A stretch of 59,884 bases of DNA, the filler included, from Barthelona sp. PAP020 (lineage: Eukaryota), in the NCBI GenBank assembly GCA_040182905.1. It is 3 parts of 3 records of this genome, joined end to end, with 100 filler letters (N's around TTAATTAATTAA, not from the genome) between each part and the next. Parts side by side here need not be neighbours in the genome. Positions count along the whole stretch, not along the records: positions 20,015 to 39,901 come from JARQWU010000200.1; 2 more parts are not named here. One strand, written 5' to 3'. Under the pieces are notes generated by a model, which saw only the letters and a program-made list of their open reading frames with translations, had not been told where the DNA came from and did not search any database. Every line of letters begins with the position of its first letter. Position 1 is the first letter of the stretch. Positions 6,001 to 54,522 of this stretch are shown here, piece by piece. The position numbers and the translations under genes are program-made.

Positions 6001-7112
6001 ATAGTTGAAAATAACCAAAGATCACATGAATTAAACTCAATATCATCTAAAAAGGTAATATTACCATTATAAATTTCCAAAGACCCTTGAATATTGGAGT
6101 TTTTCAATGTTTCAACTGAGTTTAATGTCTCAAAAGTAATAGAATTGCTTCCACGTGCTTGTATTTCCAAATTAACAATAAATCCTTCAACTATAGGATT
6201 AATGACAGTTAAATCACAATTGTATAATTCACCGTAAAGAAAAACTTCATCAGTAGTCGTAGAATTAAACTCAAGTATCAATTTGGCTGACTGATCACAA
6301 AAGAAAGAAACTTCATCTGAAATAACAACTAAATGAAGATAGATATCTTTTGTTGTATTGAACGATTGGGAATAAAGAAAACCAAAAGTTACATTACAAT
6401 GAAAGACAATAGTCTCAATTGTGGTCAACACTGGTGAATGCCAAGAACACACATGCAATGGAGTGCCAACTGCCAAACCATTAATAGTTCCTTTTCCCCA
6501 TAAGTCCAAAACAAGATCATTAATATTGTTCAATAACATGTAATCATTATTATAAAAACAATAACTTCCAGTATTTTCAATTAAATAAAACCATGAGACA
6601 ACATATATCACCATATTGGAAACATCTGAGAATTGAAACTCAAAGTTAGAACTTATGATTGAAGAATTCAACAACAAAGGATGAAGCTTCAAAATACTCT
6701 CAATTTCATTGAAATATTGTGCTTCATACAAAAAAAATTGGCCAAATAACAGGGTTTTATCTAATTTGAGGTCAAATACCAAAACATGTCCAACAAATTG
6801 AATATTTGAATCGCTAAAATCAAGATTAAAACCAACAGAAGGAGTGATTGCAAGATTTTCGTAATTGACTCGAATGGTCAAGTTGCTATTCTTCAGATTA
6901 ATGTTTTTAATGTGAAAATTATGAGGTTTTTCATTCAAATAACCTGATGATATATCGACACCAAGTACAGTAATTACATTTACCTCCTTGACAATCGATA
7001 ATTCATTAGACTTTAATATACTCATGAAAATAAGGTTATCATTCAAATAGAATATCTCAAAAGCATTAAACTGCAAAGATATAATATTTTCAGAATTCCA
7101 ATATTCAACATC
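1..7112 (-). CDS. Continuation of the giant surface protein in a second frame (>2,300 aa, runs off the window start)
   Basis: The frame opens after TAA at 7115-7113 and reads DVEYWNSENIISLQFNAFEIFYLND... Stretches translated by hand (about 7110-5900, 4320-4200, 300-1) are stop-free, and the ORF track lists no stop-terminated long ORF in this frame, consistent with it staying open to the edge (...FNGTFVHNNSVVAFDYCEAY). Composition matches the upstream ORF. Confidence 0.75.
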
Positions 7113-10100
7113 TTAAAATTCATAATCCCTTCACCAGATATTGAACAACCAGGTAACTTGAGTATTTGCCCCTCAATTATAGCATTGTTTGTAAGTATCA
7201 AGGAACCAGCACCAACATAAATTGTTGAAGCAAAATAAATCAAATGTCCAATTTGATTGCTTCCTGATATCATGAGAAAATCATAAAAGAACACTTGAGA
7301 TATGTTGGAATTCTCAACAGTACCTACAATATTGCTCAATAACAAGATCGTTGATTGACTGATTGATGTGGTCAAAAGTACGTCTGATTGGTTATGAAAA
7401 ACAAGAGTGTTAATAGTTGAATTGTCGATTAACCAAATTATAGGTTCCTCAACAAAACCTCCAGAACAAAGTCTATGTATCGATGATGATTGAAGAATCA
7501 CACTGAAAAAATAAGCTTTTGCTGGCAATGTTGAATTATAGGCCTGAAGCTCATTCCCCTTGATGATATCAACTAACATAAAAGAATTGTTGAGATATAA
7601 TGTCTCCAGCAAAATGGAAATGTCTGCATCATATAACTCAACAATAAAATCGATTGTGGAGTGAATTGCCTTAATATGTCGCCAATTTGCTGACCTATAC
7701 ACAATTACCGAAGTGTAACTAATGAATAAGTTTTCAATAGTTGCTTCATCCACAAATAGACTGCAATTATACAAAGAAGCGTTGAAAATATAGTTATCAA
7801 TACCATTAAAATTAACAGTAGTGTTGTAACTGATCAAATTAGTGATATTTGTCTCACTTACACTAGCATTCAATAAAAATCTTTCAACATTGACTTGACC
7901 ATTAATTATAGTGACAGTAGAAAAATTGCTAGAAACAATGTTCATAAACACTCCCTCAGTTATCAAATCGGAATGATTCTCAGTTATATTTTCAAAGTTT
8001 ATGACTGATTTTGAACAACCAACAACGTTTTGAATGGAAGATATGTTATCGATCAAATTCAAACTGCTATTAACCAAAGAAATGCTGCTTAAGTTTGTTC
8101 TTTCGATGTGAACAACAGCATTTATAACCGTTAAGCTCGTTACATCAAGATTATCAATATGTACAACACCAGGACCTGAGATTATCAAATCAATATCATC
8201 ATTATCATCCTTCCAACTTGTCAAATTATGGATATTTATGTTACCACCAATTTGTAAAATTGAAGAAACATTGATAAAACTGTGAAATGTTTTATTTCCT
8301 GTCAAATATATGTCATTACATAACATTTCGGTGATGAAGGAGTCTCCTGCTATTTTTATTGAACCATCAAAATCAATAAGATAATCAACTTCAATATTGT
8401 GCACAAATACATTAGAACTTTCAATTTGTAGTGTATTTCCAATGATATTGCAAAATGCAACGAGTGTTGAATTCACCAAAGTCAAATTTGATATTGTAAA
8501 TACATCGCTATTCAAAAACATTGTTACATTGACAAATTTTGAATTAAAACCATAACTAGCTTCAATACTGGTTAAATAACCATTGGTTAGCAATGTGTTA
8601 TTTATAAAAAACATATCATTACATCTTAAATATTCTCCTTGCCATTCAACATTATCAAAATACAATTTTGAAACAAAAATATACCCAATAAGCCTGGAAT
8701 TCGTCACGTTAATTAAATAGTTAACCAAATACACATCAAAATAAACATCAAATAACACAAGAGTCCCAGTATCTTGTATCACTTTGGTTTTGGGAAAATC
8801 AAAGGATAAGGCCATGACGTCGATGCCTTCAACTTTAATCTCCCCATCAAGCATCAGCATTTCTTGAGAAATGTATCCGCAGAAATGAGAATCAACAATT
8901 CTAAAATCATCAACTGCTAAAATTTCAAAATATACAGGAAAGGTAATATTTAAAACACTATTGACTTTCATTATCACAATAAAGAATTGAAATTCATTGG
9001 ATTGATAAACAGTCAAAGTATTAACCCCCATAAATCTGACAGGGCGGCCAAATGTCAATGAAGATAAATTTAGAAAAGAATCGACAACAAAATCAACATT
9101 CAACTCACATGAATCAATTTTATTGCATGAAATCACAGTTTCATTGATTAAAGTCGAAGATAAACTTCCAAAAAAATTGACAGTACTATTGTAAATCCTG
9201 GTTATTGAAGGACTATCCAAATTTGATAACATTCCATTTTGGATGGTATTTAGATTAATGATGTGTCCATTACCTTCAACAATAAGATGAAATGCATTAA
9301 TATCAGTTGAAAAAATCAAATCTGTTTGCAAATTGATTGATAAAGTACCAAAAATGGATGATAAATCAACATCTAATGAAGAAAATTCTTGTAGGTCATT
9401 GATAACAATAGACAAAGTAGAATTGCCATCACTAACAAAAACTCCATAAGAAGAATCACATTGGATAGAAACACCCCTTTCAATAGTGACATTGGAACAA
9501 AATTGAACGTCTACTGAACCATATTTGACTGTTGAATTGACCAAAGAAGTCAAAAAGGAGGGCTTTGCAAAACCAACGATGGAATTAGAAATTTCAACAA
9601 AATCATTTGGAATGGGATGAATTGCTTGTACTTTCAAATCATCAATAAATTCAATATTCAATCCACATTGAAAATCACTAGTAAAAATCAATGAACAATT
9701 GGATGTTCCGACTACATGTGCTAATCCTGTATTAGTACATGTATGAATAAATGTTGTGGTATTTGGACCCAAAACTAAAGAGTTATCCCCAATATTTTGT
9801 AAATAATTTAATAATGACCCAAAATACACAGATTCTTCATCAAATTGGATAAAAGAAACGTTATTAATTGACCCTTCAACAAAACTACTCTTCATAATGG
9901 TTGAATTAACCACAAGACTTGATATTTCTTCTTGTGAAACAATACTTTCATTGTAAAACAAAGAAATGATATCAACTGCACAATCTTCAATAAAATTATC
10001 GTTTTTTGCCAAATTCATTCTTGAAATGGCCTCAAAACCGTCTAAATCATATGCTTCCAATAATCTAAGATTAAAAAGATATGTTTCCGCATTAATTTTT

Positions 10101-12535
10101 TCAGAAAATGTTATTGAACAATCATACAGATCGATATCAAAAAGAATATCTTCTAAAATATCTTTAGAAGTAAAGAAATGAATTCCACATTGTGTTTGGG
10201 ACAAAATAATACCACCAAATGAAGAATCTATCCCATTTGTAATAAAAAAAGAACCATTTAGATATAAAACATCAGATGTCTGATAAAATGTTTCAATGTT
10301 AAACATTCCTGTTAAAATTGATACATCTGAATCAATAAACAACTTATTGATGTCAATGAATACAAAAGGAATCGCTTCAAGACAAGAAATCTCCAGTTTG
10401 ACTTCATTAAGTAATATATTATCAAAAACTTGTACAGATGAATTGAAAGAGTGCAATTTATCAATATTTCCTCTAATATTAACAAAAGATGAAGAAATAT
10501 TAAGTTTAGACACAGTATTAACAGTAGCTTTCGAATTATTCAAAGAAATCATACCACTAAACAATGATTCAAAAAAAAATTCACAAAAATCCAGAGAAAG
10601 AACAGTATTCAATAAATTAAAAGGATAAGACACATTGACAATTGACAATTTAATATGTGAAGCTTCTAATATCACATCATTGATCAAAGATAGATTATAA
10701 ATGTAAGTATTTGAAAGAAAAGAAATACTGTTTGTTGCAGCTTTAGTAGAATCGTATGAAAATACTACAAAATTAGTAAATAATCCTCCAACATTACAAG
10801 TATCGCAATAAATTGTCCCTAACATCAAAGGAAAAGAAATGCTTGAAGAAACCATAGTTAATGAATCTATATTGGCATTTCCAACACCTTTTATGACACT
10901 ATCTTTCACAAAACTGCTTGAAAATTTGCCTTTTATATAAATTTCAGAAGACTTAATGAAATTTGAATTTAAAGCCCCATAAATTTGAAAATTAACATTG
11001 ATTAAAGAATAAAAATTATAAAAACCAAATAATTTCGTGGTTGCAGCATAAATAACCTTCAAATTATTATTTGTAAGTCCATATAAGGTATGTAGTTCCA
11101 AATCAACCATAACCAAAGTAAACTCAACACTATTATCATTAATACATATTTTGGGAGAATAAAATTCTCCACTAAATGGTGTAAAAGATAAAGAAATAAT
11201 GTTTAAAACGTCCAAACTCTTTAGACGACAATTTGGAGTAAACTTATCTATTTGCAATGAAGAATTGATAGAAAGTAGATCTCCTTGACATGAGATTAAC
11301 GTTATATAACTGTTTGTTAAAAAAATAGAACTTTCATTTGTTGGCAAAACACTAATTGAATTATCTACTGATATATCCTGAACAATAAGCTGACTAAAAT
11401 TACCATCACTGCTTAAATCAATTAATTCCAATCTGAGGTAAGAAAAAAAAGTCAAATCAATAAAACAATGTGTCCAGTCAGCACTTATCTCGTTATTGTT
11501 TGAAATACAAGACATAACATTTCCTTTGATTGATAATGAATACAAAGAAACGAATGTTGACACATACAAGGTGTCAAATTCAAAATAATAATGAACTATC
11601 AAATGTTTAACAATAACAGAATTCGCTACCAAATTGCCAGCTTCAACAAACCCATTTACAATCAATTTATTTGTGTATAAATCAATAAATACAACATCAG
11701 TGATATTCAAAACCTCAAATATCTCGAGATTAAAAATAGAAAAATCAAATTGAAGAGACGTTTTCTTTGAACAGTTTAAAAAAAAGGAGTTGGTTGAATC
11801 AATAGAAATAGAACTAGACACAACAATGTGTAATGACTTGGTATCATCAAGGGGAACAAATGTCATGTTATTCATTCCAGCTATAATAAACGGATTAGAA
11901 ATGGTCTGGTAAATTAAAACAGAATTAAACAACAGTATTTCAATGTCATCAACAAAGATGTTCTCACATTCAATGACACAATTATAACTTGAGGATAGAA
12001 TGACGCTTTCAACAGCAATAAGACTCAATCCATCCAATGTTGAGGATTTTTTTCCAATAAAATTATTCAAATATAAAGAAATGGAATCTGTAGATGTGAA
12101 TTGAGAAAAAATCGTTATGCTATTAAAACTAATCGAACTTTTATGATTATATATGTGAATATTTGTATCATCAAAAACCAGTAAATCAAGATTTGGAAAA
12201 TCATTTGCAAAAAGAATATTAACAAAAGATACTTGCATCTGGACACCTAAATCTGGATTTTGACTTTCAGAACTAATAATAATATTGGAATAAACGGCAT
12301 TATCTTTGCCAGTAATTGAAAGTACAACTGATGAGGTTAATTCCAAATCAAAAACCAAAATTTGGCAATATTCGTTCTGTAAAATCGTTTTTGAAGATAC
12401 CTTTACTGAATAAGAAACAATTTCTGAAGTTTCAATCACGATTCCATTTTTGCAAGGAATTTCTTTCAATCCATTCACAGAAGTTATTAATTGTAAAACA
12501 AACAAAAATATTATACCAATAAATTCATTTTTCAT
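7043..12535 (-). CDS. Giant secreted/surface protein, N-terminal part (1830 aa ORF); predicted beta-helix/solenoid-rich, function unknown
   Basis: Long ORF with an N-terminal signal-peptide-like segment (MKNEFIGIIFLFVLQLITSVNG). Composition is I/V/N/S/D/F-rich with short repetitive beta-strand-like motifs (e.g. NSTL, NSSL, NVTM). It probably continues into the next frame after a break near 7112-7134. Confidence 0.75.
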   Translation of the reverse strand: MKNEFIGIIFLFVLQLITSVNGLKEIPCKNGIVIETSEIVSYSVKVSSKTILQNEYCQILVFDLELTSSVVLSITGKDNAVYSNIIISSESQNPDLGVQMQVSFVNILFANDFPNLDLLVFDDTNIHIYNHKSSISFNSITIFSQFTSTDSISLYLNNFIGKKSSTLDGLSLIAVESVILSSSYNCVIECENIFVDDIEILLFNSVLIYQTISNPFIIAGMNNMTFVPLDDTKSLHIVVSSSISIDSTNSFFLNCSKKTSLQFDFSIFNLEIFEVLNITDVVFIDLYTNKLIVNGFVEAGNLVANSVIVKHLIVHYYFEFDTLYVSTFVSLYSLSIKGNVMSCISNNNEISADWTHCFIDLTFFSYLRLELIDLSSDGNFSQLIVQDISVDNSISVLPTNESSIFLTNSYITLISCQGDLLSINSSLQIDKFTPNCRLKSLDVLNIISLSFTPFSGEFYSPKICINDNSVEFTLVMVDLELHTLYGLTNNNLKVIYAATTKLFGFYNFYSLINVNFQIYGALNSNFIKSSEIYIKGKFSSSFVKDSVIKGVGNANIDSLTMVSSSISFPLMLGTIYCDTCNVGGLFTNFVVFSYDSTKAATNSISFLSNTYIYNLSLINDVILEASHIKLSIVNVSYPFNLLNTVLSLDFCEFFFESLFSGMISLNNSKATVNTVSKLNISSSFVNIRGNIDKLHSFNSSVQVFDNILLNEVKLEISCLEAIPFVFIDINKLFIDSDVSILTGMFNIETFYQTSDVLYLNGSFFITNGIDSSFGGIILSQTQCGIHFFTSKDILEDILFDIDLYDCSITFSEKINAETYLFNLRLLEAYDLDGFEAISRMNLAKNDNFIEDCAVDIISLFYNESIVSQEEISSLVVNSTIMKSSFVEGSINNVSFIQFDEESVYFGSLLNYLQNIGDNSLVLGPNTTTFIHTCTNTGLAHVVGTSNCSLIFTSDFQCGLNIEFIDDLKVQAIHPIPNDFVEISNSIVGFAKPSFLTSLVNSTVKYGSVDVQFCSNVTIERGVSIQCDSSYGVFVSDGNSTLSIVINDLQEFSSLDVDLSSIFGTLSINLQTDLIFSTDINAFHLIVEGNGHIINLNTIQNGMLSNLDSPSITRIYNSTVNFFGSLSSTLINETVISCNKIDSCELNVDFVVDSFLNLSSLTFGRPVRFMGVNTLTVYQSNEFQFFIVIMKVNSVLNITFPVYFEILAVDDFRIVDSHFCGYISQEMLMLDGEIKVEGIDVMALSFDFPKTKVIQDTGTLVLFDVYFDVYLVNYLINVTNSRLIGYIFVSKLYFDNVEWQGEYLRCNDMFFINNTLLTNGYLTSIEASYGFNSKFVNVTMFLNSDVFTISNLTLVNSTLVAFCNIIGNTLQIESSNVFVHNIEVDYLIDFDGSIKIAGDSFITEMLCNDIYLTGNKTFHSFINVSSILQIGGNINIHNLTSWKDDNDDIDLIISGPGVVHIDNLDVTSLTVINAVVHIERTNLSSISLVNSSLNLIDNISSIQNVVGCSKSVINFENITENHSDLITEGVFMNIVSSNFSTVTIINGQVNVERFLLNASVSETNITNLISYNTTVNFNGIDNYIFNASLYNCSLFVDEATIENLFISYTSVIVYRSANWRHIKAIHSTIDFIVELYDADISILLETLYLNNSFMLVDIIKGNELQAYNSTLPAKAYFFSVILQSSSIHRLCSGGFVEEPIIWLIDNSTINTLVFHNQSDVLLTTSISQSTILLLSNIVGTVENSNISQVFFYDFLMISGSNQIGHLIYFASTIYVGAGSLILTNNAIIEGQILKLPGCSISGEGIMNFKMLNIGILKILYLCSLMLLRYSI

Positions 12536-19914: not shown

Positions 19915-20014
19915 NNNNNNNNNNNNNNNNNNNNNNNNNNNNNNNNNNNNNNNNNNNNTTAATTAATTAANNNNNNNNNNNNNNNNNNNNNNNNNNNNNN
20001 NNNNNNNNNNNNNN
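19915..20014. other. Artificial scaffold linker (44 N + TTAATTAATTAA + 44 N)
   Basis: Exactly 100 nt with a six-frame-stop palindromic spacer; identical to the second gap. Confidence 0.95.
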
Positions 20015-20371: not shown

Positions 20372-22050
20372 TTACAATTCTGAAGCAATGAATTCCTGGA
20401 TTGGAACATTTGTATTTTTGCTTTTCCATCCACTACACAACAAACGAGTTTCATCATGGTTGAGGGCCATAGTATCAATTTTAAAAGATAGACGCATTTT
20501 CAGCAACACTTGACCTGTTTCTCTTCGAATCACATCAAATAATCGGTCACTAGAACCAGAATAAATCAATGAATCATCTTGGGAGAAGACAATTGAGTGT
20601 ATCCACCAATCATTATGAACCTCATACTTTCCCAACAACTCTCTAGATTCAACATCAAATATCCTGACTGTACCTTCTCCATCACCTATTGCCCAATAAA
20701 CACCATCGGGTGAGAAGCTCTCTGAGATGACACTATTTTCATCATAATCCCATGTGTGAAGCTCTTTATACGTCGCCAATGAAAACAACTTTGAATATCG
20801 AACATAGCTGACAGATGCAAAGTATTTCATATTGGGAATGATACGTACAGACCGGATATCACTTCGATGTGGTCGAGATTCATGCAATTTCTGTCCTTCG
20901 ACCATGTATATGGCAATGTAACTACCATCCATACCAAAACAAAGCAATTTACCATCTAGTGAGAACCACAAATGATTTACCTTCCTTCTCATATCAGTAA
21001 TCACTCTTAGTGTTCTTCATGTATCAACCTCAATGATAATAATTGCTGGACATTCACCGCTAACAGCCAAAAGTTTGGAATCTGGACTAAAATTGAGACC
21101 AACAGTGAATACATACCGCCCTTTATACACAATTTCATGTGTTTCAGCGTTGTAGACTCTGAATATTTCACTATAATATCCTGTCACTGCAAAAAAGCGT
21201 TCATCAAAACTGTAAATCCTTGTATTCGGAAACTTCTCACTAAACACAAGATTTACTTAAGATTTTTCGACTGCACCAAGAATTTGCTTTCTATTTGCAC
21301 TTGATCGATCATTATCATTGTTGTTCATTAGGTCATTCAATTGGGTTGTCAAATGGTCGACTTGATTTGCCAATTCTTGGTTTTTATTCATCCAGTTTCT
21401 TTTGTCTTCCATAAAATTGTCTACTTGATTGAATAATTCTTGGTTTTTATTCATCCACTCTTCTTCTTTAGCTTTCATCTCATTAGCCAACTCAGGAGCA
21501 GCATATCTCGCAGCCCCATCATTGAATTGGCCGAACTTCTGCTTGCATCACGAACAAGCCCAAAATCAGCGATTACAGGTGTATATGTCCCATCAGCATC
21601 ACGTTTCAATAAAATATTGTTCAGTTTAAAATCGCTGTGTACACACTTTTCCCATAACTCAAGAGCTGATGAAACTTGCATCATAATAACCAACTTTTCC
21701 TTCAAAGATAATTCTGATATCACTTCCTTAAGATCCGCATTACAATATTCCATCACAATACCTTTCTTCTATCAATCTCAGCAACTCCAAAGACTTGTTG
21801 AATAAATGGGTGATTGAGAACAATGGGAAAACATTCCATGGTAAGTTCATCGTCAGTAATGTTATTAACAAAGAATTTTATAACATCAAGCTAGCTTTTC
21901 ATGTCTCTTTCCAAGATGTAAGAAGCCAAAACCACCCATTTTGTAATTAAATTTAACTATTTCAAACTCACTTCCACGTATGTTGATTTTATTCGATTTC
22001 AAAAAATTATGCATTTCTTAAAAGCATCTTCGTCTAGTTCTTCAACATTT
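20372..22050 (-). pseudogene. Decayed protein kinase + coiled-coil + WD40 gene
   Basis: Kinase motifs are spread over shifted frames: KMGGFG (~21940), HPFIQQVFG, IVMEYC, HSDFKLNNILL, IADFGL, then a shifted ARYAAPEL. These are followed by a coiled coil and WD40 repeats, in one frame broken by TAA (21257-21259) and TGA (21017-21019). Confidence 0.75.
21350..21460. repeat. Two-copy 63-bp-period tandem repeat encoding WMNKNQEL(F/A)NQVD
   Basis: AATTCTTGGTTTTTATTCATCCA occurs twice 63 nt apart. Confidence 0.8.
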
Positions 22051-22201
22051 TTTTGCACTACTTTGCACGTAGTTTTTGAAGCTCTTTTGACTCTTGATTT
22101 TCTTCAAACGCGAACATTATAAAAAAGGAACATCAAATGTTGGTTTGAAGAGAAAAAATTATTATTTGTTTCAACGTTCAAGACCTGTTTATGTGCATAA
22201 T

Positions 22202-28108: not shown

Positions 28109-29380
28109 ATGACAAGTCATCAATTATTTTTAAGACAACTATTTATTGGGAAGTGTGAAACTTCGGATTTAAATACAAATGAAATCATTCAAATTGGAAT
28201 TAATCGAGTTTTTGATGATTTACATTTTTCAAATCGTGAAGAAATTTGGATAAATCAATTAAATCAATTATTGAATGATTTTGAAAGCAACAACCCTGAT
28301 TTCTTCCATAATAGGTTTATATCATTAGAAGAAGAAATTATAGTATTTCCTTTTGTCTTTTCAAGTAAATTTTTATTAAACTTGAAAGAATTACACAACA
28401 ACTTGTACAAATTACTGCGACAACCTCTAAAAAAAAAAAAAAAATTTGTTAATTTGAATTCAAGCAATATAAGGAAAACTGTACCAAGAGTTTTGGCAAG
28501 TCTTCCATTCAAGAAAAGTAATTCAACACAAAATAAAAATAATTACAATTTGTTGGGTGAGATACTTTCGAAAAGGAAGATGGATTCTTCCACTGAAATT
28601 GAAGCTAACCCTGTAAAAGCTGAGAAAACACAAACTGGCTTGATTTTAAGAAAGGAAAAAAGAGCAATGAAGAAAAGAGAAAGGAAAAAAAAAATCACTG
28701 ATTTTAACAACGTTGTTAAATTGCCCAACAGCAAGTGTAAATTACCTGTTGCGATTTCTGCCCTTTTGAGGGGAATGTCTGAGAAAGTTGCAAATAAAAA
28801 GAATACAATGTATGTAATTGGGATGAGAAAATGTCGTATCAAACTGTCTGCTTCACGTTTGAACAAAGTAAAGCATAACTTGATTCCACAATACTTATTT
28901 GCCGCATATGGTGCTACGGGGGAAATGGGTGAAAAAATATCCGAATTAGTTGGAATTGCCAAAGAGTTATCCATTCCTGTTTGGAGATATCACATAGACC
29001 TGAGTCCTAAATTGTTTCGTGCATTGAAGGTTAAAGGTCAAAAAATGATCTGTATGTTGGTTCTTTCCACAAATGGTGTTGAAGCACAAAAAGAGGTTGT
29101 TGATCATTTTTTGCGAACACTACATGCTCAAGGCTATGATGATATCGATTTTGAAAATTTCATGATTTTGGATCAAATGGAAGAAGATGATGATGATGAT
29201 AATTATAGTGATGATCATGATGAAAAAGAAGAAAAAGAAGAGAATAATGATGAGGCAGATCAAAAAAATAATGAATCAATAGATGATGAGTCAAAGGAAA
29301 ATGCTGAAATTTTTTGGGACAAACACATTTTTGATATTGAAAATTTGGATGATGATACAAGTTGGGCTATCGACATTTGA
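28109..29380 (+). CDS. L7Ae-domain RNA-binding protein, SECIS-binding protein 2 (SBP2)-like
   Basis: K-rich segment (GLILRKEKRAMKKRERKKK), then an L7Ae-like domain YVIGMRKC...ISELVGIAKELSIPV...KLFRALKV...CMLVLSTNGVE (cf. SBP2 LVLGLREV...IIDYACEQNIPF...ALGRSLNK...VGIFSYDGAQ), then an acidic tail. Confidence 0.55.
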   Translation: MTSHQLFLRQLFIGKCETSDLNTNEIIQIGINRVFDDLHFSNREEIWINQLNQLLNDFESNNPDFFHNRFISLEEEIIVFPFVFSSKFLLNLKELHNNLYKLLRQPLKKKKKFVNLNSSNIRKTVPRVLASLPFKKSNSTQNKNNYNLLGEILSKRKMDSSTEIEANPVKAEKTQTGLILRKEKRAMKKRERKKKITDFNNVVKLPNSKCKLPVAISALLRGMSEKVANKKNTMYVIGMRKCRIKLSASRLNKVKHNLIPQYLFAAYGATGEMGEKISELVGIAKELSIPVWRYHIDLSPKLFRALKVKGQKMICMLVLSTNGVEAQKEVVDHFLRTLHAQGYDDIDFENFMILDQMEEDDDDDNYSDDHDEKEEKEENNDEADQKNNESIDDESKENAEIFWDKHIFDIENLDDDTSWAIDI

Positions 29381-29384
29381 CTTG

Positions 29385-30360
29385 ATATTTTTATCAAATT
29401 ATTTGACTTGTTCTCAACCCTAAAACAGTGCATCAGCAAACTACACTTCACTCGCTTGCCTCCCCATAGCACCTTGCTCTTGCATTAACATTATTTATAC
29501 TTGTTGTTTGTTCATGTGATGTAGTGTTGGTATTTTAAACGCATAAATGAACGAACTTTTTTTTAAAAAAAATTGGTTTTCACAATTTGAAAATCTATGA
29601 TAAAAAAAAAAAAAAAAATTAAAAAAAATTAAAAAAAAAATGAGGATAGTTCTTAGGCCATTGAATAACTAGAAGACGACAATGATCGCCACGTCCTACT
29701 ATTTTTATCAAATCGAAATTCTTTCAAATATCCCTTTGTTTTCAAGTCAGGAAGCACTAAGTGTACAGGTGAATAAAAAAGAATCATAAGATATTTATGA
29801 GGTCAGAGTTGTTCAGTGAACAACGAAACGAGTTAGCTTAAGGTTTAGGAAAAACTGACGTGGATTCAGATGCCCAAGTAACTTAAAAAATTGGACATAA
29901 AGATGGTCAAGAAACAACAAATAAAGGAAGTGATATTTGATGACCTCTTTATATCTCCAATAAATTCCGTTCATTGAGCATGAACTTCCACAATAATGTT
30001 TATTTTGGTCAAGTTGTGAAATAACTATATTTATTTACAAAGAAAGTAAACTCAGAAAACTTATTCTGGCAAATTTCAGTCAAAATTCCAAAGTTTTTCA
30101 ACAGATCAATCGGTTCTCGAAAGCCTTTAACCAAATACACACCATTCTTTATTCACTCACACTCAGTGCTTCTTGGCTTGGAAATAATCACATCATACAT
30201 ATAGCTTAGAGCTTGGCTCTCTTATGACAGCATAGGAAAAGATACGCCTCAAAAATGAGAGGTTCTTTTGAGTAAATTTGGACCACCTTGAAAGAAGCAT
30301 AAAGGTTACGGTATATTGTTTGTTATTCAACTGAGATCTCCATCCTTTAATTTGATAAAA
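29385..30360 (+). ncRNA. Large structured RNA, candidate telomerase RNA (~970 nt)
   Basis: Nested long-range helices: 29389-29401/30348-30360; 29642-29684/30314-30347; 29719-29727/30288-30296; 29736-29784/30144-30187; 29789-29805/29941-29956. Template-like AACCCTAAAAC at 29416-29426, pseudoknot at 29432-29556, and P6.1-like AGAGCTTGGCTCT at 30208-30220. Confidence 0.65.
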
Positions 30361-30447
30361 TTCTGAAAAGTTCTCTGTACAAAAAAAAAAAATAAACAAA
30401 CAATTTTTTGGTTAAATTTACGCTAATCCGAAAATTTGGAAATGTTT

Positions 30448-31653
30448 TCACAATTGATCCAAATCTAAAATTCCATCATCTGACTCATCACCTGAATCTT
30501 CATCGCTATCTTCTTTTGTATTTCTTTTATCGTCAATACTCTTCACATTAGAAATTGCTTCGGACAACGAATTTTCGGATGGATTCCACATCTGATTGAT
30601 TTCAATTCCCTTTTCATTTTGAGCAGCAAGGATTTCTTGATTTAATTCATCATCATTTTCAGGTAAAACAAGGTAATGAACAACATCAGCAATAACACCT
30701 TTATTTTCTTGATCTTCTTCAATTTCGTTGAATTCATTTAAAAATTTGTAAAGAATTGAGTTTTTTAAGAAAATTCTGGTTTTTTTATTTCTTAATAACA
30801 ACAACAAAACCTCTAAAGACATTCTTCGAATGTGAATGTCTTCTTCAAATTTAGTGTCTGGGTCATTGATTCTACGTTTTAAGAAATCAGGAATTTCAAC
30901 ATTTTCAAGTTTTAAATTTAAACGATGATCAGCCAAAAAGAATAAAACATGTTCATGAATGTCTAAATCCACCAATTTTTCATGTGATTTATCGTTAAAT
31001 GCTAGATTTTTAAACAATCCAAGGACGCATCCTCGAATTCGAGGATTAGAATTGGTTAAATAGGGAATAGAATACTTTAAAATTGAACTATTCAATAAAT
31101 AATCACAGCCTTCAGCATTTTGAGCACAATTCATCAAAATACTAAACATATAGTTAAAAGGATTCATTTTGACCTTTTTTTCCAAATTTCTAGAGATAAC
31201 AAACAATTTTAAAATCATAAATCCCAACTTTTTATCTTTAGCTGAATAATTTATCAGTATTTCAGTAGCTTCTGAACTAAGGGTAATGTTGGATAAAAAC
31301 ATTAATGCTTTAATGTTCAATTCACTCAAAGAATTTCTAATAATCCAATCTAACACATTCTCAACAATATTATTCTTGATAATTTGTATTCTAATAGGTT
31401 CAGTCTCACTCAAATTGATCAAACAATCAAACGCAGGATTCATTCCAAGAACATGATATTCTCCATTTTCAATAATGGATGGTTTATGTGCAATATATTG
31501 ACTTAACAATGATAAAAAATTGCATCTCAATATTAATTCAACAGCATCATTATCATCAACATATTGTGATATGGTTTGTAAAGCTATTGATCTTGCTTCA
31601 ACATTGCTTCCAAATACAAATGGAACAATCTTCGCTAAATCACTCAATGACAT
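30448..31653 (-). CDS. HGH1: Hgh1/FAM203 ARM-repeat eEF2 chaperone
   Basis: N-terminal ...SNVEARSIALQTI, AFDCLINLS, RIRGCVLGLFKNLAFNDKSHEKL, and the C-terminal EEDIHIRRMSLEVLLLLL...RIFLK...LYKFLNEF pattern of the DUF383/DUF384 domains. Confidence 0.8.
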   Translation of the reverse strand: MSLSDLAKIVPFVFGSNVEARSIALQTISQYVDDNDAVELILRCNFLSLLSQYIAHKPSIIENGEYHVLGMNPAFDCLINLSETEPIRIQIIKNNIVENVLDWIIRNSLSELNIKALMFLSNITLSSEATEILINYSAKDKKLGFMILKLFVISRNLEKKVKMNPFNYMFSILMNCAQNAEGCDYLLNSSILKYSIPYLTNSNPRIRGCVLGLFKNLAFNDKSHEKLVDLDIHEHVLFFLADHRLNLKLENVEIPDFLKRRINDPDTKFEEDIHIRRMSLEVLLLLLRNKKTRIFLKNSILYKFLNEFNEIEEDQENKGVIADVVHYLVLPENDDELNQEILAAQNEKGIEINQMWNPSENSLSEAISNVKSIDDKRNTKEDSDEDSGDESDDGILDLDQL

Positions 31654-33030: not shown

Positions 33031-34257
33031 ATGAACTTTCCTATCAAAGTTGAAAATCCCCTTGTTGAACTTGACGGTGATGAAATGACCCGTATCGTTT
33101 GGAAAATGATCAAGGATGAATTAATTTTACCTTATCTTGACATTGATCTCAAGTATTATGATCTTGGTATCATGAAACGTGATGAAACTGATGATGCTAT
33201 CACTGTTGAAGCTGCTAACGCTATTGTTAAGTATGGTGTTGGTGTTAAGTGTGCCACTATCACCCCCAATTTAAAGCGTGTTGAAGAATTCGGTTTGAAA
33301 AAATCTTACAAATCTCCCAATGGTACTATTCGTAACATTGTTGGTGGTGCTATTTTCCGTGCTCCTATTGTTATGAAGAATGTTCCTCGTTTGGTTCGTA
33401 ATTGGAAGAAGCCTATTACTGTCTCTCGTCACGCTTTTGGTGACCAATACAAGGCTTCTGAAATTTATTGTGATCGTCCCGGTGATCTCACCCTTTCATT
33501 TGTATCTGATGATGGTGAAAAGACTATCACCAAGAAAGTTTATCATTTCGAAGGTCCTGGTGTTGCTATGGCTATGTATAACACTGAAGCTTCAATTCGT
33601 GAATGGGCTCACATTTGCATGAAGTTCGCCATTGATAAGAAACAAGATCTTTTCCTTTCTCACAAGAACACTATCTTAAAAATTTACGATAACAAATTTA
33701 AAGATATTTTCTTTGAAGTTTATCAAGAATATAAGGATCAATTCGAAGCTTTAGACATTGTTTTCCAAGATCGTTTAATTGATGATATTGTTGCTTATGC
33801 TTTGAAGGTTGAAGGAGACTTTGTTTGGGCTTGTAAGAATTATGATGGTGATGTTCAATCTGATCAAGTTGCTCAAGGTTTTGGTTCTCTTGGTTTGATG
33901 ACTTCTGTTTTGGTCAATCAAGATGGTGTTTATGAATATGAAGCCGCCCACGGTACAGTTCAAAGACATTATTATGCCTACAGAGATGGAAAAGAAACTT
34001 CTACCAATCCCATTGCTTCTATTTTTGCCTGGACTGGTGCTTTGGCCAAGCGTGGTGAATTGGATGGAACTGAAGACCTTATTAAATTTGCAAAGACTCT
34101 TGAAAAAGCCATCATCTACACTGTTGAAGAAAAGAACATCATGACCAAGGATCTTGCTTTGGTTATTAATGGAAGCAACATGACTCGTTCTGACTACGTT
34201 CTTACTGAAGAATTTATGCATGCCATCAAGGAAACCTTGGAAGAAATGCTCAACTAA
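33031..34257 (+). CDS. idh: NADP-dependent isocitrate dehydrogenase
   Basis: VELDGDEMTR, KCATITP, SPNGTIRN, RHAFGDQY, KNTILK, CKNYDGDVQSD, GSLGLMTS, EAAHGTV, TNPIASIFAW. Strong codon bias; no targeting presequence. Confidence 0.97.
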   Translation: MNFPIKVENPLVELDGDEMTRIVWKMIKDELILPYLDIDLKYYDLGIMKRDETDDAITVEAANAIVKYGVGVKCATITPNLKRVEEFGLKKSYKSPNGTIRNIVGGAIFRAPIVMKNVPRLVRNWKKPITVSRHAFGDQYKASEIYCDRPGDLTLSFVSDDGEKTITKKVYHFEGPGVAMAMYNTEASIREWAHICMKFAIDKKQDLFLSHKNTILKIYDNKFKDIFFEVYQEYKDQFEALDIVFQDRLIDDIVAYALKVEGDFVWACKNYDGDVQSDQVAQGFGSLGLMTSVLVNQDGVYEYEAAHGTVQRHYYAYRDGKETSTNPIASIFAWTGALAKRGELDGTEDLIKFAKTLEKAIIYTVEEKNIMTKDLALVINGSNMTRSDYVLTEEFMHAIKETLEEMLN

Positions 34258-39901: not shown

Positions 39902-40001
39902 NNNNNNNNNNNNNNNNNNNNNNNNNNNNNNNNNNNNNNNNNNNNTTAATTAATTAANNNNNNNNNNNNNNNNNNNNNNNNNNNNNNNNNNNNNNNNNNN
40001 N
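39902..40001. other. Artificial scaffold linker (44 N + TTAATTAATTAA + 44 N)
   Basis: Same 100-nt structure as 19915-20014. Confidence 0.95.
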
Positions 40002-43874: not shown

Positions 43875-46493
43875 ATGAGTTCAGAAAATATTCCTGAGTG
43901 GAAAAAGAAATTAATGGAGAAACGGGCAGCCAATGCAACTGCTCAAAGAGGTATTGCAACTGGTATGTCACCTTCAACTATGGTTTCCAAGCCTAAGGAA
44001 AAAGTTGAAAACACAATGATGAATGCTTCAAATAATGTAGCGAAAACAACCGTTGATGAACCTATTATTCAAAACGTTTCTGATCAATCAAATTTTTCTA
44101 CCATTACTGGAACCACCAGACCAATTATGGGTACTTTAATGGGAGGAACATCATTACGTGAGACTCATTCTTCAAACGATGCGATCAATTCTTTAAGTAA
44201 CAGCGAAAACATTGGAAATGGCATGGAAGGCTTGATCACTATGGTGAATAAATTACAGGATGCATTTGCAACCATTGGATTGACCTCGGTGGATTTACCC
44301 CAAATTGCTGTTATTGGTTGCCAATCTGCAGGTAAATCTTCGGTTTTAGAGAATATTGTTGGTCGTGATTTCTTGCCTCGTGGTGCAGGTATTTGTACTC
44401 GTAGACCCTTGATTTTACAATTGATTAGAGATACTACTGCTTTGCAGGAGTATGGTATTTTTTTACACACTGATCAAAAGTTCTATGATTTTGAAGCTAT
44501 CAAACAAGAAATTGTTCGAGAAACAGATAGAGTGACTGGAAATTCAAAAAATGTATCTCCCATCCCCATTAACTTAAAAATCTACTCTCCTCATGTATTG
44601 AATCTTACTTTGGTCGATCTTCCTGGTCTTACTAAGGTTCCTGTTGCCGGTCAATCCAAAGAGGCTGTAACTCAAATTAAGGACATGGTTATGAATATTG
44701 CTCGTCGTGCCAATACCATTCTTTTGGCTGTAACTCCTGCAACTGGTGATTTAGCCAATTCAGATTCTCTTGAAGCTGCACGTGATGTTGATCCTCAGTC
44801 TAAACGTACAATTTCAGTTATGACCAAGTTAGATTTGATGGATGATGGCACTGATGCACTTGATATTCTTGAAGGAAGAGTTTACAAGAATATGACATTT
44901 GTTGGTGTTGTTAATAGATCACAAAGAGACATTGAAAGCAATCGTGACATTCGTTCTGCCCTTTCAGCCGAAAAGGATTATTTTGATACTCATCCTGTTT
45001 ATCATCGTGTTGCTCATCGTATGGGTACACAATTTTTGGCACAAAAGCTTAACATTATGTTAATCAACCACATTAAAAATACATTGCCTGAAATCAGACG
45101 TACCGTTGCTACTCGTCTTACTGAAGCTGAACGAGAATTAGGTGCCTTGGGAACAGATGATTCTGAAATGGGCAGAAGACAATTGGCTTTTGGTATGTTG
45201 CAAAACTTTTCAAAACTCTATATTTCCATTTTAGATGGTGCAGACGCTGATGAGTTGGACAGAGTTGCAGATGGACCTCATAAATTTGAAGATAATATCC
45301 TCGCTGGTGCTATTATTAAAAAGCTTCTCACAAAAACATTAACTCAAGAAATTCAATTGGCTGATATCACAATGCAATTGAGTGATGAAGCAATTTTAAG
45401 ATACATTCAGAACGCATCAGGTGCTCAGGACCGATTCTCTGTTCCCCAAGAGGCTTTTACCGCGCCAATTAAGGTTGGTATCAGTCAGTTAATTAATCCA
45501 TGTCTCGATATTGTTGATTCAGTGGCAAAAGAATTGCTTAAACTTGTAAAGAATACATCTTCTCGTATTAAAGAATTGGAAATCTTCCCACAACTTGAAA
45601 CAAGACTTTCATCTGTCGCAACCATGATGATTGAAGATCATATTGCTCCTACAAGGAAATTTGTCAAGGATTTGGTTGAAATGGAATTGGCTTACATTCA
45701 ATTAGGAACTTTGCGCAAGCAAAAGAACAACGTTGAAGTAAGCAAAGGATTATTGCTTGAAGGATTTATCCTTAAGAAATCTGGTGGCAAATGGGGGTTG
45801 CGTTTTGGTAAGAAAACCTCCAGTTATGAGCGTAGATGGTTTGTTTTAAAGTCTCAAACCCTGTTCTATTTTGATAATCCAGAATCAACCACTCCTTTAG
45901 GAGTTTTACCCTTGGAGGGTTTGAATTTGAGAACAGCTGCAGAAGTTGCCACCCAAGATATGGTTATTCCAGACACAAATAATTGGGATGAAATGAGACT
46001 TGCCGCTTACAAAGCTGAGAGAGAAAAACTTCAAAGTGAAGCTGTTGAAACTTTTGGTGAACACTACATTCATTTGAGCCATCCCAATGGAAGAACCATT
46101 TTGCATGACAGAGAATTTTTGGAAATTCGTTGTGAAACCCCTGAAGATTATGTCATTTGGTTAGAAGCATTGAAAACAGCGACCAGAGGTGAAGATAAAC
46201 AGGAAGAAAATGATATTGAATTGGTTAGACGTGTTGTTACACAGTATATTCATAATTGTATGGCTTCTTTGGTAACACAAATTCCCAAAGCCGTCATGTT
46301 AAATTTGGTCAATCCTGTGAAGCAATTGATGGAAAGAAATTTAATGGCTCAAATATATGACGAAAAATTAATCAGTGAAATTTTGGCTGAAGACCCTGCT
46401 GTAAAAGAAAGACGTCAACAAATTAGGTTGTCTGTAAAATTATTAAAAGAAGTAAATGAAACATTGAAAGAGTTTCAAAAAGAATCAAATTGA
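43875..46493 (+). CDS. Dynamin with GTPase, middle, PH and GED domains
   Basis: LPQIAVIGCQSAGKSSVLE, FLPRGAGICTRRP, DLPG, TKLD; PH domain LEGFILKKSG...RRWFVLKSQTLFYF...PLGVLPL...WLEALK; GED IPKAVMLNLV...EDPAVKERR. Confidence 0.95.
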   Translation: MSSENIPEWKKKLMEKRAANATAQRGIATGMSPSTMVSKPKEKVENTMMNASNNVAKTTVDEPIIQNVSDQSNFSTITGTTRPIMGTLMGGTSLRETHSSNDAINSLSNSENIGNGMEGLITMVNKLQDAFATIGLTSVDLPQIAVIGCQSAGKSSVLENIVGRDFLPRGAGICTRRPLILQLIRDTTALQEYGIFLHTDQKFYDFEAIKQEIVRETDRVTGNSKNVSPIPINLKIYSPHVLNLTLVDLPGLTKVPVAGQSKEAVTQIKDMVMNIARRANTILLAVTPATGDLANSDSLEAARDVDPQSKRTISVMTKLDLMDDGTDALDILEGRVYKNMTFVGVVNRSQRDIESNRDIRSALSAEKDYFDTHPVYHRVAHRMGTQFLAQKLNIMLINHIKNTLPEIRRTVATRLTEAERELGALGTDDSEMGRRQLAFGMLQNFSKLYISILDGADADELDRVADGPHKFEDNILAGAIIKKLLTKTLTQEIQLADITMQLSDEAILRYIQNASGAQDRFSVPQEAFTAPIKVGISQLINPCLDIVDSVAKELLKLVKNTSSRIKELEIFPQLETRLSSVATMMIEDHIAPTRKFVKDLVEMELAYIQLGTLRKQKNNVEVSKGLLLEGFILKKSGGKWGLRFGKKTSSYERRWFVLKSQTLFYFDNPESTTPLGVLPLEGLNLRTAAEVATQDMVIPDTNNWDEMRLAAYKAEREKLQSEAVETFGEHYIHLSHPNGRTILHDREFLEIRCETPEDYVIWLEALKTATRGEDKQEENDIELVRRVVTQYIHNCMASLVTQIPKAVMLNLVNPVKQLMERNLMAQIYDEKLISEILAEDPAVKERRQQIRLSVKLLKEVNETLKEFQKESN

Positions 46494-51707: not shown

Positions 51708-52955
51708 TTATTTTGAACATTCAACCAAGACAACTAAAGCTTGAATAGCTTCTATCATCCGAGTAACAGAAATAAATTCCAATTTACTATGAATCTGACT
51801 TGAACCAGTCCAAATATTGAGACAACAAAATCTATCATCACGTTGAGAAAGGACAGACCCATCACAACCACCACGGACTTGACTTTCTACTGCAACAATT
51901 CCTTCATCAAGAAGACATTTGATATATTTATTTACAAATTCATTGTCAGAAGCAGTATAATTTTTGTACATGTTTGGATACGAATGAGTAGCCTTAACTT
52001 CGATTTGACATCCAGGAAATTGTTTCATTAGCAAAGCAGAATTCTTTTCAAGTTTTAAGATTTTGTTGGGACCATATGAGGAGTCAAATGATCTGCTGAT
52101 AAAACTGCCATGAGCTTCAACAAAGTTCCCTTTAACACTATAAATCGTAAAATACGGATCAGAATCTTTAGTTGTAGAGGGCATCTCAGCTGGGTCAATG
52201 AGATCAATCAATTTGTGCAAAATATATGTGGCGTTAACCATTTTGTCATAAGCAAAACCCGGATGAATACCTACACCCTTAATGGAAACATCAATCTTAT
52301 AGGCGTCAAAGGTATTCGTTTCAATAAAATGTTCAAAAGTTCCATCAACAATAACACAACGTCTTGGAAGACGATCAATTTCAAGATATTCTGATCCTCG
52401 GGCACCTTCTTCATCGGGCGTGAAACATATAGTTATGGCGGGATGAGAAATACTGTTGTCTTGTAATAGATGTAAAAATTCCATAATAATAGCAATACCA
52501 CTCTTATCATCACCACCTAACAAAGTTTTTCCTGAAGCAACTACAACATTTTCATCATAGTTTATTTCTTTCAATTCAGGAGCAACATTTTCATCAAGAA
52601 AAATTGAATCATCATCAGGATAAGTTATAGGTTCATGCTTGTATTTAATCAAACGAGGCTTAACATTTTTTCCTTCAACTGAAGAATCAGTGTCACAGTG
52701 AGCAAGTAAAGCAAAACCTTCAACTGCTAACATATCTTGAGTGGGGGGTAAAAATCCAAATACAGTTCCATTTTGTTGTTGATATGTCTCAATATGCATA
52801 TCTTCCAATGAAACTTTTAAAAGATTCAAAAGTTCCAATTGACGTAGAGTACTTGGTTGAGTTTCAGAACATCCTTTTTCAGGGTCACTGGTAGTGTGAA
52901 TTTTAACATATTGGAACAGTAAATCCAACAATCGATCTTGATTCACTTCAATCAT
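51708..52955 (-). CDS. pepT: Peptidase T (M20B tripeptide aminopeptidase)
   Basis: YVKIHTTSD, PSTLRQ, AHCDT, TLLGGDDKSGIA, FTPDEE, GIHPGFAYDKMVNA, VRGGCDGS, HSKLEFIS. Confidence 0.92.
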   Translation of the reverse strand: MIEVNQDRLLDLLFQYVKIHTTSDPEKGCSETQPSTLRQLELLNLLKVSLEDMHIETYQQQNGTVFGFLPPTQDMLAVEGFALLAHCDTDSSVEGKNVKPRLIKYKHEPITYPDDDSIFLDENVAPELKEINYDENVVVASGKTLLGGDDKSGIAIIMEFLHLLQDNSISHPAITICFTPDEEGARGSEYLEIDRLPRRCVIVDGTFEHFIETNTFDAYKIDVSIKGVGIHPGFAYDKMVNATYILHKLIDLIDPAEMPSTTKDSDPYFTIYSVKGNFVEAHGSFISRSFDSSYGPNKILKLEKNSALLMKQFPGCQIEVKATHSYPNMYKNYTASDNEFVNKYIKCLLDEGIVAVESQVRGGCDGSVLSQRDDRFCCLNIWTGSSQIHSKLEFISVTRMIEAIQALVVLVECSK

Positions 52956-53234: not shown

Positions 53235-53927
53235 ATGTCTCAGAATACTCAATTTTACGAATTTTTATTTGATGAAAACCATGATTTGATTTCAAAAGAA
53301 TATAATGATCGGTGGAATCATTATCTTGAACAAATTGAATTGAATAACTCCACCTCAGATTGTATTTTTATCGATACAAACTTTGAAAAAAGACTAAATT
53401 CTGCATTAGATGTTGATTTAGCTGTTTTTTATGCTGCTTATTGGTATAATAAAGCCGTTCAAAAATCTATCAATTTGTTAAAGAGATTTGTTAGTTTATA
53501 CAATGATTCTTTTATTGCTTGGAGATTTTTAGGATTAATTCTATATAATGAAGGTTCTTTTGATGAGGCAAGACATTGTTTTGAAATGGCTTTATGCATG
53601 ATGTCTGAAGATTCAAATTTATTAGTGGAATTAAGTGCATGTCTTTACCAAATTGGCAGTCCGCTCAGTATTAATCAGGCGTGTCAACACATGGCAAGAT
53701 GTTTGACAATTGATAATTCCAAAGACAACTTAATGTGTCTATTTTACCTTTATAAATTAGGTATGGTATCAAATGAAACAGCTAAACGTGGCTATGATGT
53801 GATTTTGAAACTTTTAGAAAAACAGTTCAATGATAATTCACAGCAAGTTTCTGAACTTGTCAATTCTCAAACAATTGATGATTTCTTTCCAAAAAAGTTT
53901 GTGGTTCCCTTGGTGATTAAAAGATAA
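53235..53927 (+). CDS. TPR protein, possibly EMC2-like
   Basis: TPR helices AWRFLGLILYNEGSFDEARHCFEMAL; LKRFVSLYNDSFIAW resembles EMC2 (YLEQFVGDQEAW...AAFCLEE). Confidence 0.55.
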   Translation: MSQNTQFYEFLFDENHDLISKEYNDRWNHYLEQIELNNSTSDCIFIDTNFEKRLNSALDVDLAVFYAAYWYNKAVQKSINLLKRFVSLYNDSFIAWRFLGLILYNEGSFDEARHCFEMALCMMSEDSNLLVELSACLYQIGSPLSINQACQHMARCLTIDNSKDNLMCLFYLYKLGMVSNETAKRGYDVILKLLEKQFNDNSQQVSELVNSQTIDDFFPKKFVVPLVIKR

Positions 53928-53952
53928 ATTTGAGTTGTCGGAAAAAAAAAAT

Positions 53953-54522
53953 TTATTCGTCTTTCTGTTTACTTTTTTCGTTTTTGTTGATAAATTGTTG
54001 ACTTGGCCTTTCATTTTGTTTTTGTTTTTTTAAGTGCATTTCATTTTGCTTTGACCGAATAATCAACAGGCCACCATCAATAACTATTCCAAATGCACCA
54101 AAAATAATCATCAAAATGAACTTGAAATTAGAATTTGACGAAAATCGATTTCCCACATAATAACCAAAAATTCCAAGCGTTATTGCTGTGACAAAAACAT
54201 TTATTCCACCCAAGGCACTTGCTGGTATTTTATTGAAATACTTCTTATCAAACTGTTCTTTTCTGTTTAAACCATTAGATAGTTTTTGATAAAAAGCAAT
54301 TTTTTCTTCATCAACATCTTCAAAGATTTCATCGGGTTCATAAAAGGGTTTACATGTTTCTAATATGGGAAAAATTAATTTTCTTTCATGATTATCTAAT
54401 AAAAATTCACACATTTTCTTGAATTCATCATATTCAACAATATCATTTTCTTTTAGCCCTTCATGAGAGTTTTCTTTTAAATATGGCAGTATTTCATTCG
54501 AAATCACAAAACGAACGGGCAT
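53953..54522 (-). CDS. Vma12/TMEM199-like V-ATPase assembly factor
   Basis: Soluble N-terminal half, two C-terminal TM helices (GINVFVTAITLGIFGYYVG; ILMIIFGAFGIVIDGGLLIIR) and a basic ER-type tail (KQKDE). Confidence 0.6.
   Translation of the reverse strand: MPVRFVISNEILPYLKENSHEGLKENDIVEYDEFKKMCEFLLDNHERKLIFPILETCKPFYEPDEIFEDVDEEKIAFYQKLSNGLNRKEQFDKKYFNKIPASALGGINVFVTAITLGIFGYYVGNRFSSNSNFKFILMIIFGAFGIVIDGGLLIIRSKQNEMHLKKQKQNERPSQQFINKNEKSKQKDE

Follow-up and report, generated by a model that had tools for sequence, protein, structure and literature searches.

A candidate telomerase RNA with a P6.1-like hairpin in the protist Barthelona sp. PAP020

We have analyzed a stretch of DNA of 59,884 nucleotides from Barthelona sp. 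PAP020 (assembly GCA_040182905.1), here called the window. It is gene-dense, with ORFs that are mostly uninterrupted and a GC content of 30%. Between a plus-strand gene encoding a 423-aa protein and a minus-strand HGH1 gene there is a gap of 1067 nt that has no ATG-initiated ORF of at least 100 aa, and among the stop-to-stop frames that overlap it the longest has 74 aa. A Pfam scan of 13 of the 15 gap frames of at least 35 aa gave no match at the curated cut-off (best E 0.01), and the gap does not look like a decayed protein gene. The GC content of the gap is 0.31; that of 23 of the 24 other gaps in the window lies between 0.15 and 0.28, and that of the remaining one (20993-22201) is 0.34. The latter contains, on the minus strand and upstream of a WD40 ORF, a broken protein-kinase-like frame with stops and frame changes, and folding revealed no structured RNA there.

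The preliminary description of this DNA reported an ORF-poor gap of about 1 kb, the ends of which pair perfectly, containing a telomere-template-like motif, an H-type pseudoknot and an A/T spacer. All of these are present where they were reported, the pseudoknot as a prediction. The features of the locus are:

28109-29380, plus strand: upstream gene, 423 aa, an L7Ae/L30e-family lead and possible host mRNA
29381-30447: the gap between the two protein genes
29389-30360, plus strand: candidate telomerase RNA, ~970 nt, its ends placed by the terminal helix
29389-29401, plus strand: 5′ strand of the P1-like helix, 13 bp, a predicted template boundary element starting 8 nt past the upstream stop codon
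29416-29426, plus strand: template-like motif AACCCUAAAAC, 14 nt after the P1 strand and predicted to be mostly unpaired in the whole fold
29432-29451, plus strand: 5′ strand of pseudoknot stem 1, 16 bp with two 2-nt bulges, pair probability ~0.8 for 15 of the 16 pairs when the stem 2 strands are held out
29482-29494, plus strand: 5′ strand of an alternative stem 1, 12 bp, with which the loop ahead of stem 2 would be U-rich and 11 nt long
29506-29515, plus strand: 5′ strand of stem 2 (P3-like), pair probability 0.97, contiguous with the 3′ strand of stem 1
29516-29531, plus strand: 3′ strand of stem 1, pairing with 29432-29451
29547-29556, plus strand: 3′ strand of stem 2, pairing with 29506-29515
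29557-29641, no strand assigned: linker, or junction of two transcription units, with a T8 run, a small hairpin and A17 and A10 runs
29642-29697, plus strand: 5′ strand of the arm base, pairing with 30303-30347, pair probability 0.8-0.98 in the outer four helices and ~0.5 in the inner two
29700-29713, plus strand: exact repeat of the 14-mer at 29386-29399, which could compete for the 3′ strand of P1
29736-29777, plus strand: 5′ strand of a 38-bp helix, pair probability 0.88-0.99, a possible P6 equivalent with a 370-nt branched extension
30148-30187, plus strand: 3′ strand of the 38-bp helix, pairing with 29736-29777
30208-30220, plus strand: P6.1-like hairpin AGAG-CUUGG-CUCU, with a 4-bp stem and NUNGN loop, predicted to form with probability ~0.76
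30303-30347, plus strand: 3′ strand of the arm base, continuous with the 3′ strand of P1
30348-30360, plus strand: 3′ strand of the P1-like helix, the exact complement of 29389-29401
30402-30411, plus strand: Sm-site-like run, 41 nt past the helix, a weak lead for 3′ end protection
30448-31653, minus strand: HGH1 gene, downstream and convergent, Pfam DUF383 E 8.9e-14, with an HGH1-named match

The two ends of the candidate pair exactly over 13 bp, with a pair probability of 0.95. There are eight perfect inverted repeats of at least 13 bp with arms within 2 kb in the window, so that such a helix is common in itself; this one stands out by its position, bracketing the gap and forming a direct stack on the arm helix that ends at 30347. 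Both copies of the 14-mer are able to pair with 30350-30360, and their 11-base core is found nowhere else in the window. A tandem duplication as the origin of the two copies was rejected, since nothing aligns beyond the 14-mers themselves. Just outside P1 the sequence CUGA at 30363 faces UGAU at 29383; this likeness is weak, and no consensus box C is present. Further out, the U-rich 3′ tract of the HGH1 gene (30381-30392) ends just outside the candidate RNA. Patterns of the Sm type occur on the two strands of the window 9 times in a narrow form and 95 times in a broad form.

The template-like motif fits TTTTAGGG over 11 nt, the sole site in the window to do so, and fits TTTAGGG over 9 and TTAGGG over 8. 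As a template its best fit would thus be to telomeres of TTTTAGGG, with the two other repeats also compatible. Of 20,000 shuffles of the gap, 109 had a template-like motif of the TnAGGG set within their first 100 nt, and 769 had one from a broader set of repeats. The template is predicted to be single-stranded, with a helix as its 5′ boundary: P1 (p 0.95) ends 14 nt before it, and its first two bases are contacted only by a weak 4-bp hairpin (p 0.37). Published metamonad telomere repeats vary, including TTAGGG and an unrelated 10-mer (PMC11316075), and that of Giardia is TAGGG (PMC10999387).

The pseudoknot lies immediately downstream, where stem 1 is crossed by stem 2 and abuts it directly, without any unpaired base between them. 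Two contiguous pseudoknot stems have been described for vertebrate and non-yeast telomerase RNAs (TRs) (PMC3592445). We scored the pseudoknot with a duplex-based descriptor, as a prediction from complementarity within one sequence. Its summed duplex energy is −27.4 kcal/mol, against a shuffle mean of −16.3 (s.d. 2.4), and none of 300 shuffles was as good. Counting both strands, the window has 18,594 qualifying junctions, of which this is the fifth best, and among 23 template-like sites in the window it is the best downstream pseudoknot (−26.4, with the next at −23.2). Folded alone, stem 1 is no better than its shuffles (z 0.0), and the structure computed as the energy minimum is a nested one lacking the pseudoknot, since knots of this kind are beyond the folding program. 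The alternative stem 1 has an energy of −6.8 kcal/mol compared with −11.5 kcal/mol for the favored one, weaker by 4.7, and a probability of at most 0.02. The upstream loop of the favored fold is 54 nt long, and at the stem it has no run of 4-5 U such as forms the vertebrate triple helix. When the template-pseudoknot pattern was sought in metagenomic DNA, 18 loci were found, none with both stems as strong; we rejected these as relatives and attribute them to chance, the best BLASTN match to the gap having E 1.8 and P6.1 not being found.

The spacer that follows has its T8 run at 29557, A17 at 29602 and A10 at 29631. Genes in the window end in T-rich tracts, and several of their 3′ flanks show a T run and then an A run, as does the spacer. 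No clear intron signal was seen in it. Beyond the spacer rises a long multibranched arm with unpaired inserts of 50-120 nt. The complete stretch of 976 nt has a folding energy of −218.1 kcal/mol, whereas its 20 shuffles averaged −182.1 and none equalled it (z −4.42); this stability comes from the arm. Folding of 29700-30199 gave z −5.5 on the plus and −4.5 on the minus strand; 21 control windows outside the gap supplied 42 folds with z between −2.1 and +2.6, and the signal was lost (z −0.7 to +1.5) in three windows of 500 nt whose borders cut through the arm, all with 8 shuffles each. With 60 shuffles each, the arm has z −4.5 on the plus strand, where 0 of 60 shuffles were as good, and −5.2 on the minus strand. 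Its single non-Watson-Crick positions comprise 11 G·U that favor the plus strand, 7 that favor the minus strand and 7 others. Since the arm lacks a strand preference, the plus-strand reading rests on the template, pseudoknot and P6.1-like hairpin and not on the energy of the arm.

Within the arm, the hairpin at 30208-30220 is identical at 11 of 13 bases to human P6.1, for which the hairpin printed in PMC2965242 was the reference, and this is the sole such match on both strands of the window. A match of this quality arose in 6 of 20,000 shuffles, and the GAG/CUC core in 14 of 20,000. P6.1 is described as a 4-bp stem with a 5-nt NUNGN loop (PMC3592445), and any hairpin of that general form is common, with 64 in the window and an occurrence in 5,548 of 20,000 shuffles. 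The two mismatches to the human hairpin are at loop positions 1 and 3. Position 1 still pairs with position 5, as human U306 does with G310, and position 3 corresponds to G308, which is called non-conserved in human TR (PMC2965242). The equivalents of U307 and G309, called essential in human TR (PMC3950677), are both kept.

The surroundings of the hairpin are less familiar. The conserved A linking P6 to P6.1 is absent, with U at 30207; in human TR the A301U change had only a minor effect (PMC3950677). A P5/P6/P6.1 three-way junction is not formed, and the hairpin lies in a larger multiloop, with 20 unpaired bases between the long helix and P6.1 and a different hairpin directly 3′ of it. The only stems that would give a tight junction (5′ strands 29784-29791 and 29806-29812) cross the 38-bp helix. 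By its sequence the hairpin appears P6.1-like, yet it lacks two features of membership of CR4/5. Thus of the arm with a P6.1-like hairpin that was originally described, both arm and hairpin hold, but the CR4/5 three-way junction does not.

Searches for other kinds of RNA gave little. Rfam returned no match at the gathering score for the whole window. For sub-regions of the gap the best E was 0.96, with none to telomerase, RNase P/MRP, SRP, U3 or snRNA, although divergent members of these families can escape such a search. No strong match to RNase P/MRP, SRP or U3, the families named at the outset as competing identities, was therefore seen. Core motifs of RNase P/MRP (GAAAGUY, CR-V), SRP helix 8, box C, U1, U2 and snR30 are absent from both strands; the same scan matched nothing beyond box D, a single ACAGAG on the minus strand and loose patterns for CR-I/CR-IV. 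A tRNA/tmRNA search found none, and a phage collection matched the candidate in A runs only.

That the motifs are present, in this order, complementary and rare among shuffles is a matter of direct observation or calculation. These results lead us to the view, with a probability of about 0.68, that the gap encodes a telomerase RNA as one plus-strand RNA of ~970 bases; with a form split into two RNAs included, a telomerase RNA of some kind is more probable still. The identification offered in the preliminary description thus remains the best explanation, with elements in the known order on one strand, each better than its shuffles, but it is weakened by the lack of a canonical P6.1 junction and of a strand preference in the arm. 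In none of 20,000 shuffles were the template and the strict P6.1 found together. Multiplying rates as if independent gives a joint rate of less than 1 in 10^8 on strict definitions and ~4 in 10^5 on lenient ones, leaving out the stability of the arm; the descriptors were all selected with the sequence already in view, so that we discount these rates heavily, and the identification rests on this one sequence. The description had also proposed a new class of TR, and this is not shown; the recognizable parts belong to the animal/fungal class. The best-supported reading is that the candidate would be a variant of the animal/fungal design, with a P6.1 that lacks the canonical junction, lies inside an end-to-end helix and belongs to an RNA abutting a stop codon.

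Alternatively, the gap might be a composite. Positions 29381-29564 would be a structured 3′ UTR belonging to the L7Ae-like gene, and 29641-30347 an unrelated structured noncoding RNA on either strand; the likenesses to template, P1 and P6.1 would have come about by chance. This reading requires that three matches arose by accident, correctly ordered and all on one strand (109/20,000, 0/300 and 6/20,000), and that there is a second RNA that matches no Rfam family and has none of the RNase P/MRP, SRP, box C, U1, U2 and snR30 core motifs. It does account for the 3′ UTR that the upstream gene needs, the first long T run of which is at 29557, and for an arm without strand preference; moreover, inverted repeats of the size of P1 are found eight times in the window, and four junctions elsewhere outscore the pseudoknot. 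We consider it unlikely.

Less likely again is a telomerase RNA in two pieces, in which a short template-pseudoknot RNA extending to T8 (~29564) would be joined by the 13-bp helix to a second plus-strand RNA carrying the P6.1 arm (~29641-30360), or in which the short 5′ RNA alone would be the TR. The spacer at 29557-29641 resembles the intergenic DNA of this genome, with its T and A runs, and T8 adjoins the pseudoknot directly. In vitro, separate fragments carrying the two TR domains are reported to function for Neurospora, S. pombe and T. brucei (PMC3592445; PMC5175330), but no natural two-piece TR was met in the portions of the literature available. Against a split also, P1 and the arm base share one continuous 3′ strand, which is more simply a single molecule, and the 60 nt before 29389 are coding, with no TATA box seen by eye. 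Least likely of all is a fold-back DNA element in decay, or a non-autonomous transposon, that has no RNA function and is bounded by short terminal inverted repeats (29389 or 29703 with 30360). This would suit the terminal inverted 11-13-mers, the left one of them present twice, and a roughly symmetrical arm that folds equally on both strands. Against it, the 60-kb window offers no second copy beyond A/T runs and matches of at most 24 nt and no target-site duplication by eye, the arm is multibranched with unpaired inserts of 50-120 nt, and pseudoknot, template and P6.1 are left unexplained.

Taking the candidate as a single telomerase RNA, we can compare it with those already known. The vertebrate layout is a core-enclosing helix, a short U-rich linker and then the template, and the candidate shares this at about twice the vertebrate length. 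No H/ACA hairpin pair like that of vertebrate TR was seen by eye at its 3′ end. Its hairpin is like P6.1 of the vertebrate CR4/5 (human, medaka; PMC2965242, PMC3950677) at 11 of 13 bases, including the U307 and G309 equivalents; it differs from vertebrate TR in having no equivalent of A301 or of G315/G213, and no loop of 4-5 U in the favored pseudoknot.

The fungal TRs, Neurospora crassa TER and S. pombe TER1 (PMC3592445), are alike in being long RNAs with a template followed by two contiguous pseudoknot helices, a helix enclosing the core, and a distal 4-bp P6.1 with a NUNGN loop. From what is described of them, the candidate differs in lacking a short P6 joined to P6.1 by one A, in lacking a strong boundary hairpin adjacent to the template (4 bp, p 0.37), and in having its distal element inside the end-to-end helix. 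Ustilago maydis TER (PMC9564094) likewise lies just downstream of a protein gene on the same strand, is of a similar size class (1,291 nt) and combines T/PK with a P6.1 on an extended P6. It is cut from the 3′ UTR of emi1 mRNA (PMC9564094). Here the host gene would be the L7Ae-like lead and not Emi1, and processing of the candidate is suggested by its 8-base spacing only. The Trypanosoma brucei TR (PMC5175330) is also a protist RNA of ~1,000 nt with two separated domains; in the available part of that paper it has neither pseudoknot nor P6.1, whereas the candidate is predicted to have both. At ~970 nt the candidate falls within the sizes given for flagellate (781-993 nt) and fungal (900-2,400 nt) TRs (PMC9564094).

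How the RNA would work can be outlined from what is established for TRs (PMC4993307). TERT would have two separate binding sites, the template-pseudoknot core and the P6.1 region, and would be activated by P6.1. The 13-bp P1 helix would set the template boundary, and the pseudoknot would position the template. The 3′ end of the telomere would pair with AAC, an alignment of 3 bases, and 8 bases would be copied per cycle to give TTTTAGGG; for TTAGGG and TTTAGGG the alignment would be of 2 bases. The single transcript, the binding of TERT and the repeat made are all things that we infer.

A T8 run would stop RNA polymerase III. With this run internal to it, and with P1 starting 8 bases past the stop codon, the candidate RNA is probably a product of polymerase II. 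That same spacing leaves the upstream gene with either almost no 3′ UTR or one that overlaps the candidate, and it suggests release from the 3′ UTR of the mRNA. The RNA might be cut from that UTR as in Ustilago, or alternatively a promoter might lie inside the acidic tail of the gene.

The preliminary description had called the upstream gene SBP2-like, a name that we could not substantiate. The 423-aa protein gave no Pfam, PDB-sequence or fold match, and its single-sequence model had a mean pLDDT of 48 and matched no fold; an Atlas score of 0.85 to the L7Ae family is a lead. RNase P Pop3/Rpp38 is another possibility within that family. In the collections searched its only homologue was itself. 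The best non-self match of adenosine kinase had 43% identity. HGH1 had 127 non-self matches of about 22-34% identity, and scans of metagenome and GTDB contigs with it found no relative. Its top matches that carry an organism name (five of ten clusters) are four amoebozoans and one collodictyonid, at 25-30%. At 43875-46493 on the plus strand there is a dynamin with GTPase, middle, PH and GED domains, without a proline-rich tail and with an N-terminal extension of 110 aa. A 2016 survey found PH-bearing dynamins in holozoans only (PMC4824007). The lineage signals point different ways, the PH-domain dynamin toward holozoans and the HGH1 matches toward amoebozoans and a collodictyonid; they do not confirm a metamonad origin, and the collections searched contained no close relative.

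Several other genes of the window deserve mention. An NADP isocitrate dehydrogenase is encoded at 33031-34257 (plus strand); its named best matches are mostly Bacteroidota-type bacteria at 62-65%, with the top match, P0001, at 68%. An M20 peptidase at 51708-52955 (minus strand) resembles bacterial peptidase T. Both are likely to be gene transfers. Two adjacent minus-strand ORFs, at 3-7112 (>2,370 aa, open at the end of the window) and 7043-12535 (1,830 aa, without a Pfam match), overlap by ~70 bases in different frames and are possibly one frameshifted giant gene. Runs of N occupy 19915-20014 and begin again at 39902; the first has a short TTAA-repeat linker between two N runs, which is an assembly artefact, and the second probably cuts the peptidase gene at 40032. 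At 53927-53953 two convergent genes have stop codons 25 bases apart, so that their 3′ UTRs must overlap the opposite genes.

TRs have been described for animals, fungi, trypanosomes, plants, algae and TSAR groups (PMC9841428), and in 2024 that of Giardia was still unknown (PMC10999387). In the portions of the literature examined P6.1 is confined to animals and fungi (PMC4993307, PMC5175330), and among mostly non-subscription papers none was found on a choanoflagellate telomerase RNA with P6.1. That we have here the TR of a protist outside animals and fungi, with a vertebrate-type P6.1 and pseudoknot and released from the mRNA 3′ UTR of an RNA-binding protein, is a tentative proposal that we would hold at well below even odds. 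If it is true, P6.1 would predate the animal-fungal ancestor and its absence from trypanosomes would be a loss, and the derivation of TR from an mRNA would have arisen at least twice. Should the organism be a divergent holozoan, the value of the finding would fall to that of a first TR for that group. The candidate provides a seed for finding TRs in relatives, and makes the sharp prediction of a TTTTAGGG or another TnAGGG telomere. A TR with both P6.1 and a pseudoknot in so divergent a eukaryote would test where the two-domain, P6.1-dependent design began.
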